Both the position numbers and the translations under genes were made by a program. The notes under the pieces were generated by a model. The model did no database searches and was not told the DNA's origin. It worked only from the letters and a program-made list of their open reading frames with translations. A DNA stretch of 64,000 bases from Patescibacteria group bacterium (lineage in GTDB: Bacteria; Patescibacteriota; Minisyncoccia; Phycocordibacterales; Phycocordibacteraceae). The stretch is taken from assembly GCA_038064495.1 (NCBI GenBank), contig JBBTSZ010000002.1, positions 480,002 through 544,001 on the forward strand. Reading direction: 5' to 3'. Positions 3,301 to 63,063 of the stretch are shown here, one piece after another. Each line of letters begins with the position of its first letter. Within the stretch, counting starts at the first letter, position 1.

Positions 3301-3416
3301 CACGCAGAAAGGGCGAGGGATACAAGGCGTGGGCAAACATATTTCTGGAGACGTATGTGCTATACGGCGGAAGAAATTGTTGGGACCCACAACAAAGTAG
3401 CTGCGACCTTTATGCG
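3301..3416 (+). repeat. Copy A of a 3-member structured intergenic element family
   Basis: Shares the core AAGGCGYGGG...GACGTATGTGCTATACG...GGGACCCRCAAC with copies at 32933 and 62943; helices are maintained by compensatory changes. Confidence 0.6.
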
Positions 3417-32932: not shown

Positions 32933-33047
32933 GTGTGCGAAAGAGAGGTTCCAGATGCTAGGCGCGGGTTGGCTCCGAGTGCAGACGTATGTGCTATACG
33001 ACGGAACGAGGAGACGGGACCCGCAACAACGCAAATGGGGCCTATCC
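32933..33047 (+). repeat. Copy B of the structured intergenic element family
   Basis: TAGGCGCGGG...GACGTATGTGCTATACGACGG...GGGACCCGCAACAACG. It sits between the KH-protein gene and trmD and is antisense to that operon. Confidence 0.6.
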
Positions 33048-34094: not shown

Positions 34095-34472
34095 CTACTT
34101 CGGCTTCTTGAGAGATTCAAAAGCCTTTTCAGGAAGTTCGACTCCGTACCATCTCCTTCTAGTACCAACCAATGCAAGAACTTTATAATTAGCTTGCACA
34201 TCTGATCGGTTGTTTACTTTTCTGAACTGACGCTCAGCGCGCCGAATAGTAGGCCGTAGCGGACCTTTACTTTCACAACCAACCGCGTGCTCACCCTCCA
34301 CAGACCACAACGAAAACAAAGAGACGGTGTAGAGCAGATCTTGTGGTCTTTGTTCAAGTGACTCTTTTGCCTCACGAACGGCTGCTAACTTAGCCATAAG
34401 TATGGCTTCCTTAATCCGGAGGCATTCACCAATACTCACGCGAAGCGAAAACTCCTCTGAAGCAATGCCCAT
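34095..34472 (-). CDS. Hypothetical protein
   Basis: AAGGAG RBS; 125 aa; no recognised motifs. Confidence 0.4.
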   Translation of the reverse strand: MGIASEEFSLRVSIGECLRIKEAILMAKLAAVREAKESLEQRPQDLLYTVSLFSLWSVEGEHAVGCESKGPLRPTIRRAERQFRKVNNRSDVQANYKVLALVGTRRRWYGVELPEKAFESLKKPK

Positions 34473-34574
34473 CTTCTAATCTCCTTAAAAATCTAGACAG
34501 AACCTACCATAGGTTGCAAAAAGGTTCCAATCTTTTTCCAGAACGTCAGTTAACTTGGGTATGTAAAAAGAAAA

Positions 34575-34905
34575 ACCGCCCCATCATATGGGGCGGAAAG
34601 TGGTGATTCAGGCAACCTACGGCGACTCCTTTTTCCCGCAGGATTCAGAGTCTTGTCTCCAGCACGGGTGGTGTTTCATTGGCGACTTCCGTCTCCCACC
34701 TAGTATGCGCACAATTGAATGCGCAGAGGTACGCGATGCCAGATAAGCTAACGATCCGCCCCAGAGGAATCGAACCTCCGGACATTCCGACACCATCGGA
34801 ACATCGGCTGTTAAGGAGTCGAACCCTCTTTACCCTCACCAACAAGGAACAGCAGGACCTCAAGCGTTTGCCTGAATCACCGACCGCAAGTCTACCCTGA
34901 CCGCG
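34575..34905 (-). ncRNA. tRNA-like / tmRNA-like structured RNA region (identity unresolved) with its own terminator
   Basis: On the minus strand there are two GGTTCGAnTCC T-loop-like motifs, a GGU-anticodon-like hairpin, the 3' acceptor-like GGGGCGG-A, and a 14-bp long-range helix (GGTGATTCAGGCAA/TTGCCTGAATCACC). A short frame GCC AAT GAA... (ANETPPVLETRL*) is present. A terminator lies at 34566-34597. Confidence 0.3.
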
Positions 34906-34909
34906 CACG

Positions 34910-36982
34910 ATGTCAAAACGATTCCGAAATCGTCGCAAGAACAAATCCTCGGAATCTGCTACAGTAGCTGAAATGACCGACGCTGAATCTCCTATATACG
35001 AGGGGCCAATAACCATTATCAAAACCGGTAAGGGGTTTTTTTCATATGACCCTGAAAAGGATGATCTCTTCGTTCCGGGCGAGAATCTGGGTGGCGCCTT
35101 TCCGGGCGACATTGTGAAGGTGACCACGGCCGGCATGGAAGCCGACCCAAAGACCAAACAGCTGAAGCCTATCGGCAAGGTGGTTGAGGTCGTCTCGCGT
35201 AATCGCGAGACGTTTGTGGGCACGCTCACGAGTAGTCGTGAAGACCTTCCGGCAGACGCTCCGAATCTCGTCATGATGCTTCCTGACTGGAAGAAAATGT
35301 ACGTGCCGTTTGTGGTGAAAGGTGAGAACCTCCCGATTGGTCAGAAAGTGCTGATTCGCTTCCAGGGATGGGCAGCGAATCAGCCCTACCCATGGGGCAC
35401 ACTTGAGGAAATTATCGGTCCCGCAGGTGACCACGAGACTGAGATGCGCGCACTCGCGCTCTCACAAGGGTTCCGTAGTGACTTCCCTCCTGGCGTTGTC
35501 GGCGAGGCACGTGTTCTTGAAGAAACCGGCAAAGGACTCATCGCAAAGGATGCTGAGGAAGGTATTGCCGCCGGACGGCGAAAAGATTTCCGTGAAGTAA
35601 CTACCTTCACGATTGACCCGTTTGATGCAAAAGACTTTGATGATGCTCTTTCAGTTCGCGTGCTCGAGAATGGCAACACCGAAGTGGGCGTACACATTGC
35701 CGACGTCTCCTATTTTGTAAGCCCCGGAACTGCGATAGATGACGAAGCACGTCAGCGCGCCACTTCGGTGTATCTCGTGGACCGCACCATCCCCATGCTT
35801 CCGGAGGTACTCTCCACAAACCTTTGTTCGCTGAATCCGAACGAAGACCGTCTCTCGGTCTCGGCGGTGTTTGAACTGAACGCGAACGCGGAAGTGGTTT
35901 CCAAGTGGTTCGGTGAAACCGTCATTCACTCTGATAGGCGCTTCACCTATGAAGATGCGCAGGAGGTGCTTGATAGTCAGTCGGGAGATTTTCTTACAGA
36001 ATTGAACACGCTCAAGACGCTGGCGTTCAAGATTCGTGACCGTCGTACTAAGAGTGGCGCCATTGCCTTTGATACCCCCGAAGTAAAGATAAAGCTGGAT
36101 GAGACCGGGAAACCCATTTCCGTCACACTGAAGGAGCGTCGCGATACGAACCTGCTGATTGAAGACTTCATGCTTCTTGCAAACGAGAACGTTGCAGAAA
36201 TGTTGTCAGAAAAAGCGCAGAAAGCAGGGCTCACGAATTCGGTTATCTACCGCATCCACGACCTGCCCGACGCTGAGCGTATTGAAAACCTTTCGCAATT
36301 CTTGAAGGTGATGGGTTATGAGCTTGAAACGCATGCCGGTCGCGTGAAAGGTTCCGACATTAATGCCCTACTTAAGCAAGTGGAAGGCAAGCCGGAAGAA
36401 TATTTGATAAAGACCGCTACCCTACGCTCCATGGCAAAAGCGGTCTACACTACGAAGAACGTCGGCCACTTCGGTCTTGCCTTTGAGTTCTATACGCATT
36501 TCACGTCTCCTATTCGTCGCTATCCTGACCTTCTCATTCACCGCCTCGTGAAGCACAACACTAACGGCGAACCATTTACCACGAGCCAAGTCGCAGAGCT
36601 TCAGAACCTTGCGACGCATTCAAGTGAGCGCGAGGCCGGAGCCGTAGAGGCTGAGCGTGATTCCATCAAGATGAAACTCGTTGAGTTTATGGAAGATAAG
36701 GTCGGGCAGGAATTTGCTGCCGTTATTTCCGGTGTCTCAGACCGCGGACTCTATGTGGAACTGAATGAAACCCGTGCAGAAGGCATGATTAAGATTCGTG
36801 ATCTCGGCGACTCGTCTCGCGACGGAGCGGGCGACTACTTCGTCTACGACGAGAAACGCTATCGCATTATTGGCGAGCGCACGAAGGTGCAATACGCGCT
36901 TGGAGACCCGGTGACCGTAAAACTTATTGCTGCACGACTACAAGAGCGTGAACTCGACTTCGCCCTCGTGAAGCCCGCATAA
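34910..36982 (+). CDS. rnr: Ribonuclease R (RNB family 3'-5' exoribonuclease)
   Basis: N-terminal basic tail, cold-shock-like domain, RNB catalytic motifs and a C-terminal S1 domain. Confidence 0.9.
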   Translation: MSKRFRNRRKNKSSESATVAEMTDAESPIYEGPITIIKTGKGFFSYDPEKDDLFVPGENLGGAFPGDIVKVTTAGMEADPKTKQLKPIGKVVEVVSRNRETFVGTLTSSREDLPADAPNLVMMLPDWKKMYVPFVVKGENLPIGQKVLIRFQGWAANQPYPWGTLEEIIGPAGDHETEMRALALSQGFRSDFPPGVVGEARVLEETGKGLIAKDAEEGIAAGRRKDFREVTTFTIDPFDAKDFDDALSVRVLENGNTEVGVHIADVSYFVSPGTAIDDEARQRATSVYLVDRTIPMLPEVLSTNLCSLNPNEDRLSVSAVFELNANAEVVSKWFGETVIHSDRRFTYEDAQEVLDSQSGDFLTELNTLKTLAFKIRDRRTKSGAIAFDTPEVKIKLDETGKPISVTLKERRDTNLLIEDFMLLANENVAEMLSEKAQKAGLTNSVIYRIHDLPDAERIENLSQFLKVMGYELETHAGRVKGSDINALLKQVEGKPEEYLIKTATLRSMAKAVYTTKNVGHFGLAFEFYTHFTSPIRRYPDLLIHRLVKHNTNGEPFTTSQVAELQNLATHSSEREAGAVEAERDSIKMKLVEFMEDKVGQEFAAVISGVSDRGLYVELNETRAEGMIKIRDLGDSSRDGAGDYFVYDEKRYRIIGERTKVQYALGDPVTVKLIAARLQERELDFALVKPA

Positions 36983-62942: not shown

Positions 62943-63063
62943 GGGCACCGGGAAAAGCGTCATAGGCAAGGCGCGGGAAGACGACGAGCGCAGGCGTATC
63001 ATGTATACGACGTAGCGTGGAGTCGGGACCCGCAACGAGGCATATGGTGCTTTTCGCAAGCCC
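62943..63063 (+). repeat. Copy C of the structured intergenic element family
   Basis: AAGGCGCGGG...GGCGTATCATGTATACGACG...GGGACCCGCAACGAGG; the outer helix is GGAAAAGCG/GCTTTTCGC. Confidence 0.6.

Follow-up and report, generated by a model that had tools for sequence, protein, structure and literature searches.

The DNA analyzed here is a stretch of 64,000 nucleotides from a Patescibacteria group bacterium (contig JBBTSZ010000002.1; the window, below, means the whole of this stretch), and its minus strand carries, at 34566-34909, what looks like the gene of a structured RNA of about 315 nt. On one side of it lies rnr, the gene of RNase R, on the plus strand; on the other side the orphan open reading frame (ORF) orf125, rpsP, a KH-domain gene and trmD follow on the minus strand. 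The relatives of the RNase R are all Patescibacteria (Paceibacteria/Parcubacteria), and the same sequence is present in the NCBI assembly GCA_964357455.1 and in a Logan assembly. An earlier note on this DNA had listed motifs resembling a tRNA or a transfer-messenger RNA (tmRNA) in the region, and all of them are present on its minus strand. The hairpin TTCCG-ATGGTGT-CGGAA lies at 34801-34785 and is followed by TGTCC, the T-arm GGAGG-TTCGATT-CCTCT lies within 34780-34762, and the acceptor-like GGGGCGG-A lies at 34762-34755. A second GGGTTCGACTCC is found at 34826-34815, 49 nt upstream of the first, a frame reads GCC AAT GAA ... CTC TGA, a perfect 14-bp inverted repeat joins 34881-34868 to 34615-34602, and the locus ends in a terminator with a 9-bp GC-rich stem and a U-tract (34596-34576). 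Three further statements stand only in part. The region is not literally free of ORFs, as two mechanical ORFs on the minus strand, one of 59 aa and one of 209 aa, overlap with it. It does lie upstream of RNase R, on the strand opposite to rnr, so that the two form a divergent pair. Finally, the acceptor-like GGGGCGG, said to have no matching 5' strand upstream, does have a partner, but a downstream one, namely the 5' arm of the terminator, CCGCCCC (34596-34590).

These features exceed chance, as indicated by the pair of T-loops, the unique inverted repeat, the stability of the fold and the terminator. The T-loop pattern GGTTCGANTCC occurs twice in the window, both times at this locus, while shuffled sequence yields a mean of 0.21 occurrences and only 2 of 100 shuffles reach two matches. 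The inverted repeat is the sole one of that quality in the region and forms a helix with a pairing probability of 1.0 in the thermodynamic ensemble. The fold of the region is more stable than 100 of 100 shuffles (z = -3.9). A miniature inverted-repeat transposable element was also considered as the source of the repeat, but the window contains no second copy, and the two arms covary in the manner of an RNA helix. A third decamer resembling a T-loop, GTTCGACTCC, is found at 34136-34145 on the plus strand, inside orf125 and in the opposite orientation; its region is 88% complementary over 16 nt to the region of the first T-arm, and without a flanking stem the decamer is probably due to chance.

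The RNA has one homolog. Metagenome contigs were scanned for two T-loops at the observed spacing, the second within a GGAGG...CCTC stem, and 85 loci were returned, most of which are tRNA genes followed by duplicated T-arm/acceptor fragments. Locus L297 (JGI Ga0207707_10000009, a 300-kb contig), however, is collinear with the window RNA over its full length, with 76% column identity from promoter to terminator. Its host is also a member of the Paceibacteria, and the relatives of its ribosome recycling factor (RRF) are annotated as Adlerbacteria or Paceibacterota. The neighbors of the L297 copy, fmt, def, murA, mreB and frr, have nothing in common with those in the window. Based on this comparison, the following parts are recognized in the window RNA, listed from the 5' end:

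34889..34916, minus strand: promoter-like site TTGACA-16 nt-TAGACT; transcription would be expected to start at ~34882, at the foot of the closing helix.
34868..34881, minus strand: 5' strand of the closing helix P1, GGUGAUUCAGGCAA, with 9 pairs common to L297.
34849..34853, minus strand: 5' strand of Stem A, GCUGU, the first acceptor-like stem, pairing with 34811-34807.
34829..34848, minus strand: purine-rich linker with a GGG run, UCCUUGUUGGUGAGGGUAAA, at the position of a D-loop surrogate.
34812..34828, minus strand: T-arm 1 with the canonical T-loop UUCGACU, from a motif scan and the comparison with L297.
34807..34811, minus strand: 3' strand of Stem A, ACAGC, from the comparison with L297.
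34781..34805, minus strand: variable hairpin of 11 bp with a GGU loop, pairing probability 0.96.
34762..34780, minus strand: T-arm 2, CGGAGG-UUCGAUU-CCUCUG, differing from L297 by one loop base.
34756..34762, minus strand: segment X, GGGGCGG, at the position of an acceptor 3' strand and complementary to the terminator 5' arm.
34658..34743, minus strand: domain resembling the ribosomal L1 stalk, with matches to the large subunit (LSU) rRNA models of Rfam.
34743-34736 / 34665-34658, minus strand: H76-like helix, with 3 compensatory pairs relative to L297.
Within 34658..34743, minus strand: CGCGUA junction of the L1-stalk-like domain.
34729-34701, minus strand: lineage-specific hairpin inserted in the stalk-like domain.
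34700-34696 / 34671-34667, minus strand: H77-like helix, with 1 compensatory pair relative to L297.
34693-34684, minus strand: H78-like GAC-GGAA-GUC.
34683-34672, minus strand: region of the second T-loop of the stalk-like domain (T-loop 2), GCCAAUGAAACA.
34634..34643, minus strand: small hairpin UCC-UGCG-GGA, for which L297 has GGAG-AGCG-CUCC at the same place.
34602..34615, minus strand: 3' strand of P1, UUGCCUGAAUCACC, from pairing probability and comparison.
34566..34596, minus strand: intrinsic terminator CCGCCCCAU-AUG-AUGGGGCGG followed by a U-tract; the 5' arm of the terminator, 34596-34590, is termed X' and can pair with segment X.

As arranged here, the unit looks like a promoter-like site, an RNA of ~315 nt and a terminator, and the RNA gene would thus be transcribed on its own. 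The position of the promoter is common to both copies, with TTGACT and GTAGTAAT at the aligned place in L297, where a consensus scan did not flag a promoter-like site. The terminator of L297 also lies at the same place (641-662). Between these ends the two copies share, in order, the promoter-like TTGAC(A/T), a GTAG box, TTCAGGCAAAC, T-arm 1 followed by AACAGCC, the hairpin, T-arm 2 as CGGAGGTTCGA(Y)TCCTCTGG, AGCTT(R)TC, GCGTA, G(R)TGGGAGACG ... GTC..CAATGAAA(Y)ACCA(Y)CCG, GGAGACAA, GTCGC(Y)G, the 3' strand of the closing helix and the terminator.

The two RNAs were aligned structurally by hand, block by block, and the pairs were counted by script; MAFFT used alone puts Stem A, the variable hairpin and other variable regions out of register. 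Among the 72 proposed pairs, 41 are identical, 10 have changed on one side, 20 have changed on both sides and still pair, and 1 is broken. The variable hairpin, which the earlier note had read as a threonine anticodon arm, has a counterpart of 12 bp in L297 that is unrelated in sequence and ends in a GAAA loop in place of GGU; all 11 aligned pairs differ and all 11 pair, so that this element is a variable hairpin and not an anticodon arm. The small hairpin is compensatory in all three aligned pairs, and the H77-like helix reads GGUGG/CCACC in the window and GAUGG/CCAUC in L297. In P1, one pair is compensatory, A-U having become G-C, and another shows a wobble change; the stem of T-arm 1 likewise differs at two pairs, one of them compensatory (A-U versus G-C) and the other by wobble. 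Both strands of Stem A, which stacks directly on T-stem 1, are invariant and hence show no covariation, and T-stem 2 is invariant as well. The T-loops are canonical in all four T-arms of the two RNAs (a 5-bp stem, TTCRANN, G53-C61), and, as in tRNA, an acceptor-like strand follows the 3' strand of each T-stem without a gap. The linker of L297, CCUGCAGAAGGUU, is shorter and also contains GG, and it may serve in both RNAs as a surrogate for the D-loop. The variable stems are capped by the stable tetraloops GGAA, UUCG and GAAA. Overall, the conclusion that the two sequences belong to a real RNA family appears well supported by this pattern of conservation. A long-range pairing of GACUCCUU with AAGGAGUC, which is favored thermodynamically (p about 0.58), was discarded because it is not conserved in L297.

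No further members of the family were found in any fetched locus or in viral contigs. The family-specific patterns CAATGAAAYACCAYCC, GGGAGACG..GTCNNCAATGAAA and AACAGCC..GGAGGTTCGANTCCTCTGG yielded no true homolog on viral contigs, where patterns of T-loop pairs match many unrelated elements. BLAST searches of phages and plasmids returned matches of T-arm size only, and a spurious 73-aa ORF across the RNA matched only itself among 1.8 billion proteins.

The larger part of the RNA, which the tRNA-like interpretation of the earlier note had missed, resembles the head of the ribosomal L1 stalk. In the ribosome, the H77/H78 core of this stalk is the binding site of the protein uL1, and the stalk also contacts the E-site tRNA by stacking on its elbow. 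Positions 478-564 of L297 match positions 2205-2290 of the archaeal LSU rRNA model, corresponding to helices H76-H78 of the L1 stalk, with 38 bits and E=9e-10 (Infernal, Rfam E-value mode). In the window copy, 34702-34667, UAGGUGGGAGACGGAAGUCGCCAAUGAAACACCACC, matches positions 2466-2501 of the eukaryal LSU model (H77/H78) with 17 bits and E=0.017 in a narrow search of 106 nt. Both matches are below the gathering score for whole rRNA, as expected for a fragment, and the likeness surfaced only via L297 and such a very narrow search. T-loop 2 is UGAAA in both RNAs, with the signature UGNNA, and T-loop 1, with the signature AGNN(N)A, is present as AGCAAA in L297. The best-conserved portion of the stalk is the core of H77, H78 and T-loop 2, in which the conserved CAAUGAAAYACCAYCC makes up T-loop 2 and one H77 strand. 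Given the LSU matches, the letters CAAUGAAACACC, which had resembled a tmRNA tag frame, belong to T-loop 2 and the 3' strand of H77. The H78-like stem differs in length, from a minimal 3 bp in the window (GAC-GGAA-GUC) to ~12 bp with a UUCG cap in L297. Thus, the 3' domain appears, with good support, to be a copy of the L1-stalk head formed by H76-H78 of 23S rRNA. It has the same three-helix layout as the ribosomal stalk and nearly the same core, UAGGUGGGAG...CAAUGAAACACCACC. In contrast to the stalk, which is part of 23S rRNA, this copy would reside in a transcript of ~315 nt with its own promoter-like site and terminator, and it is fused to T-arms. Lehmann et al. (PMC3664808) describe a double T-loop module, with UGNNA in its signature, whose contact with the tRNA elbow is made by stacking on the G19:C56 platform; RNase P and the apical part of T-box Stem I contain this module too.

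Copies of uL1-binding sites outside the ribosome are known in principle (PMC2175363). Like the uL1 autoregulatory sites in the mRNA of the bacterial L11-operon leader and of Methanococcus L1, the RNA contains an extraribosomal copy of the H77/H78 core. Unlike them, it is not located upstream of rplK or rplA but on mobile DNA, in a host that may lack uL1, and it far exceeds them in size, retains H76 along with the T-loops and includes T-arms.

The RNA gene appears to lie in DNA inserted in this lineage. In nearly all of ~75 related genomes, rpsP and rnr are divergent direct neighbors separated by 0-200 bp, while the gap is 941 bp here. Neither the RNA nor orf125 was detected in 80 loci around RNase R relatives, nor in the closest relatives L204 and L242-L244, whose RNase R is 81-83% identical. 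Because of the wide gap and the lack of detection in relatives, the locus looks like a lineage-specific insertion whose adjacency to rnr is incidental. The longest rnr ORF starts at 34910; however, the start used by the database protein P0002, of 669 aa, and by all relatives, of 650-670 aa, lies 21 codons further on. The true start of rnr is therefore probably 34973, and the first 63 nt of the long ORF (34910-34972) are probably non-coding and house the promoter-like site of the RNA on the opposite strand. The same insertion also contains an ORF:

34095..34472, minus strand: orf125, an orphan ORF 100 nt after the terminator of the RNA, with its own terminator at 34088-34063.

This ORF has no Pfam or PHROG match, and the only related database sequence is a fragment, 99% identical, that comes from the same groundwater site. 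Its AlphaFold2 model is uninformative (pLDDT 41), and it is absent from L297, so that its place in the RNA element is uncertain.

In L297, the unit spans 421 nt, including the promoter-like site, the RNA and the terminator, and lies between two 72-nt direct repeats that are 96% identical. Each repeat includes the final 8 nt of a tRNA-Asn gene together with 64 nt from the flank downstream of it. Three related contigs, L434, L437 and L438, whose RRF is 93%, 86% and 84% identical, respectively, have the same gene order and the tRNA-Asn, and the RNA is not present. Since the RNA gene is inserted at unrelated sites and is missing in the relatives of both hosts, a recent, site-unrelated acquisition on horizontally acquired DNA appears well supported for both of them. 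At the same tRNA in L437, a gene for a large serine recombinase (Resolvase and Recombinase domains, 540 aa; L437:1-821) abuts the 3' side, which suggests that tRNA-Asn is an integration site in that lineage. A separate peculiarity of this tRNA gene is that in L434:1138-1403 and L437:760-1100 it is split by an insert of ~185-195 nt, and ARAGORN misses both split genes; it is intact in L297 and L438. The split genes fit the group I introns described at position 35/36 of Patescibacteria tRNA-Asn (PMC13011429).

Taken together, the anatomy appears well supported as that of a stand-alone structured RNA that combines two tRNA-type top halves with an L1-stalk mimic and resides on mobile DNA. The interpretation as an independent gene for a ~315-nt non-coding RNA that combines two T-arms, an L1-stalk copy and a helix joining its ends is given a probability of about 0.55. 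An RNA with both a stalk copy and elbows can plausibly dock on itself, bind a cellular tRNA or bind uL1.

How such an RNA could work is suggested by segment X. The partner of this acceptor-like strand of T-arm 2 lies ~165 nt downstream, and X:X' comprises 7 bp in both RNAs, GGGGCGG/CCGCCCC in the window and GGAGUGG/CCACUUC in L297, with two compensatory changes and one wobble change over the 7 pairs. In both RNAs, X resembles the 3' arm of the terminator, though its sequence differs between them, and the energy of the X:X' duplex is of the same order as that of the terminator hairpin. Because X pairs with the terminator 5' arm, the acceptor stem and the terminator are mutually exclusive, and the two may constitute a switch. 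The conservation of this competition suggests that binding could be coupled to the choice of conformation. The helix between the 5' and 3' ends would clamp the transcript, which has two domains: the 5' domain presents two mimics of the tRNA top half with the variable hairpin between them, and the 3' domain is the stalk copy. In the proposed mechanism, the RNA would imitate the contact between the E-site tRNA and the L1 stalk. The stalk-like domain would bind uL1 or a tRNA-type elbow, either that of its own T-arm or that of a cellular tRNA. Binding would then set either the X:X' pairing, with the acceptor-like stem formed and the terminator hairpin lost, or the intact terminator. This logic would be that of a T-box antiterminator with the tRNA-like partner built in. 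The mechanism, in which a mimic of the E-site contact decides between X:X' and the terminator, is tentative, less likely than not, and clearly less probable than the RNA gene itself.

Several points weigh against these interpretations. Only two members of the family are known, and the helices were chosen on the same two hand-aligned sequences on which they were counted, so that the counts lean towards structure and an independent statistic of the R-scape type is impossible. The structure of minimum free energy also differs from the comparative structure. In the window copy, the first T-loop of the stalk-like domain is split by a hairpin of 27-29 nt (34729-34701) and its conserved G is missing; because of this interruption the docking of an elbow is doubtful, and the platform for it may not form. 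The pairing of X with X' would, together with P1, form a pseudoknot, and in L297 there is no co-oriented gene behind the terminator for a switch to control. Furthermore, uL1 may be absent from the host cell, which argues against a simple uL1 decoy. A Shine-Dalgarno (SD) core precedes 8 of 39 window genes, against a background of 13.5%, indicating that the host is SD-poor, and the low-SD trait overlaps with the Parcubacteria that lack uL1 (Tsurumaki et al., PMC9297842). No coding sequence for rplA, L1 or L11 was found within the window, nor was rplA found in the fetched loci. Separate observations concern translation initiation. Among the starts of 39 long window ORFs, many have a -10 box resembling TAnACT located 7-12 nt ahead of the ATG, so that the mRNAs would be leaderless or nearly so, and orf125 is an exception in this SD-poor genome in having a perfect AAGGAG 8 nt before its ATG.

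The competition between X:X' and the terminator, and its covariation, could also mean that the RNA is a cis-acting leader resembling a T-box riboswitch, in which the stalk platform would sense tRNA or uL1 and attenuate a downstream gene. In the window, this gene would be orf125, which begins 100 nt downstream on the same strand and whose own promoter-like site is only weak. The L1-stalk head, moreover, has a known relative in the apex of T-box Stem I, and the RNA shares with T-boxes both an L1-stalk-like module of the elbow-docking type (PMC3664808) and a conserved pairing that competes with an intrinsic terminator. T-boxes, in contrast, possess a specifier loop, a T-box sequence and an NCCA-binding bulge, which were not found in this RNA, and there is no Rfam T-box match. 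They precede a gene for an aminoacyl-tRNA synthetase or for amino acid metabolism, whereas an orphan ORF follows in the window and nothing co-oriented follows in L297, and their tRNA is a separate molecule, whereas the tRNA-like partner here, a T-arm and an acceptor-like strand, is within the same RNA. In addition, the L297 unit ends at its terminator and is followed by a repeat and an antisense tRNA-Asn, orf125 has no homolog and may not be a gene, and a helix between the 5' and 3' ends right before a terminator is typical of stable small RNAs (sRNAs). A small RNA or switch acting by mimicry is favored because L297 lacks a downstream gene, orf125 is an orphan and the terminal helix lies just before the terminator; the leader is considered unlikely. 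Even less probable is that the sequence is inert debris of mobile DNA, made of a captured piece of rRNA and of decayed 3' fragments of tRNA genes left as attachment-site (att) scars, and functionless as an RNA. The earlier note had proposed an att remnant, and the RNA gene does sit in inserted DNA, with the L297 copy lying between att-like 72-nt repeats at a tRNA gene. Such scars consist of a T-arm and an acceptor 3' strand without the 5' half in inserted DNA, as found here, and the repeats of L297 include a tRNA 3' end. A serine recombinase lies beside the same tRNA-Asn in L437, metagenomes frequently contain tRNA genes with duplicated T-arm/acceptor fragments behind them, and T-arm 1 of L297 resembles segments of phage attP and tRNA-Ala. 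The T-arm segments, however, are not copies of a neighboring tRNA, and the window contains no tRNA gene besides a dubious ARAGORN call. The helices are kept in two hosts that differ at about the level of genera, with 20 double-sided changes and 1 broken pair, the stems that vary in length are capped by GNRA or UUCG loops, and the promoter-like site and terminator are conserved in position. The hairpin itself has G37 instead of A37 and a loop that is not conserved, both of which argue against its descent from tRNA-Thr. Because the helices are maintained by compensatory change, a passive att scar is an unlikely explanation of the sequence.

The readings as a tmRNA or a tRNA fared worse. A divergent or circularly permuted tmRNA (ssrA), functionally tied to the neighboring RNase R, was proposed in the earlier note, and RNase R is indeed a partner in trans-translation. 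Both the T-arm joined to an acceptor-like strand and the short frame starting A-N-E recall tmRNA, as does the linker that precedes the T-arm in place of an anticodon arm, and the 5' partner of an acceptor-like strand lies downstream, as in permuted genes. The stacking of a T-arm on an acceptor-like stem is a trait shared with tmRNA and YrlA alike, and a long helix joins the 5' and 3' ends in YrlA as well. On the other hand, ARAGORN, which can detect permuted genes, finds no tmRNA, also at the lowered threshold -ps80, and the Rfam families RF00023, RF01849-51 and RF02544 have no match at E<=10 in the window copy or in L297. The frame reads ANETPPVLETRL* in the window, while the aligned frame in L297, (I)NEIPSARETKIFW..., has no stop for ~29 codons and encodes another peptide. 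The identity of X:X' as a tmRNA acceptor was also rejected, as it lacks the third-position G:U (G3:U70) of alanine identity and the CCA end, and X is followed by 150 nt of RNA in place of a free 3' end. The genes rpsP and rnr are direct neighbors without the RNA in ~80 related genomes, so that the adjacency to rnr arises from the insertion and a link to RNase R and trans-translation is not supported, and the absence from all close relatives is unlike the behavior of the essential ssrA. Both tmRNA and YrlA, moreover, contain a single T-arm, whereas two are found here together with an rRNA mimic, and no Rfam match of the tmRNA or YrlA type was obtained. No Ro (rsr/TROVE) domain was found by Pfam among the nine neighboring ORFs, three of which, including orf125, have no Pfam match at all. 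In view of the missing detector matches, tag frame conservation, G3:U70, free acceptor end and conservation among relatives, the locus is not a tmRNA, and what likelihood is left to that reading is close to nil. An unusual but real tRNA is about equally hard to credit, whether it be a tRNA-Thr(GGU) with an intron or a suppressor of UAA whose variable arm is long. The latter corresponds to an ARAGORN call of 98 nt, tRNA-Stop(tta) at 34755-34852, and tRNA-Thr(GGU) genes with divergent group I introns missed by standard models occur in Patescibacteria (PMC13011429). The cloverleaf called is poor, however: its acceptor stem includes three G-U pairs, its D stem is almost without pairs, its anticodon stem has an A-C mismatch, and position 33 is a C (C33). 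ARAGORN does not repeat the call in L297, where the supposed variable arm and acceptor do not keep the fold; the acceptor CUGUUCC/GGGGCGG was therefore rejected. The loop that carries GGU in the window is GAAA in L297. As for a group I intron in a tRNA gene, no 5' exon was found, no exon pair assembles, and the tRNA-like parts are contiguous. Rfam returned nothing for the whole window at the gathering threshold and nothing for 34450-35000 at E<=10, with the tRNA model included. Of the possibilities raised in the earlier note, that of a tRNA-like regulatory RNA comes closest: the RNA is structured and has real tRNA-type T-arms, while the threonine anticodon arm did not hold.

The combination of T-arms with an L1 stalk was not found in Rfam 15, and the literature searched on tRNA-like RNAs of Patescibacteria and on L1-stalk mimics describes no such RNA. 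This combination of modules is rated new, on two members known from their sequences. It is possible, though doubtful at present, that the RNA is a mobile sRNA carrying both partners of the E-site contact, the first to stand alone and the first with a built-in tRNA-like ligand, and that it acts as a switch sensing tRNA or uL1, or as a decoy, in bacteria of the Candidate Phyla Radiation (CPR) with a reduced L1 stalk. If the anatomy holds, it would represent a class of RNA built from two of the most conserved recognition modules of translation, the tRNA T-arm and the L1 stalk, which have found a second use beyond the ribosome and travel between genomes as a ~420-bp unit. It would also offer structural biologists a natural, cis-linked model of the interaction between the tRNA elbow and the double T-loop, and would bear on the fate of the L1 stalk in CPR bacteria, many of which lack uL1 or H78. 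Half-tRNA look-alikes in the intergenic DNA of uncultured bacteria can thus flag larger RNAs missed by tRNA and tmRNA finders and by Rfam.

The searches for T-loop pairs also returned elements of other kinds. Phage contigs contain at least 120 loci with canonical T-loop pairs 25-55 nt apart, often right after a tRNA gene in an array (for example L211:4820-4874, L217:2011-2064 on the minus strand, L212:4333-4398, L222:2194-2247, L142:3869-3924 and L206:6114-6174). These pairs are not called by ARAGORN or by Rfam at the gathering threshold, and a recurrent subtype reads GGTTCGACTCC..TCG....CCGAGGTTCGGTAAG..GGTTCGATTCC. They may represent an unannotated class of mini tRNA-like elements. At another set of metagenome loci, a full tRNA gene is enclosed in a leader-trailer helix of 9-13 bp (L311:4519-4588 on the minus strand, L257/L289, L256/L267/L268/L280/L290/L313/L314, L246/L275/L292/L306 and L253). 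There, the tRNA gene is followed by GGGG(U)AAA, then by another T-arm and a diverged repeat of the gene's acceptor 3' strand, so that the 5' acceptor strand could pair with either copy; one of these contigs was likewise obtained from the Hainich groundwater site. Tandem arrays made up simply of tRNA 3' ends are found in L305, L320 and L322.

The spacer between rnr and rpsP has features of its own in the relatives. In L002, L004, L007, L008, L010, L067, L204 and L242-L244, its minus strand contains a conserved promoter-like TAGCAGA-N17-TGCTATGA, followed by what appear to be one or two GC-rich, terminated transcripts of ~100 nt, with the motifs ..GGAGCCCTCTTACTGCGGCGGCC..(terminator) and ..AG(C/T)CAGGAAA(R)TGAGGCGCAGC..(terminator). 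Different orphan ORFs are also taken up in this spacer, apparently a hot spot of insertions and of genes for small RNAs. Lastly, a sequence of ~85 nt in the spacer between trmD and the KH-domain gene (window 32957-33041) has copies of 76-80% similarity at 62966-63050 and 3346-3395 and constitutes a short dispersed repeat.

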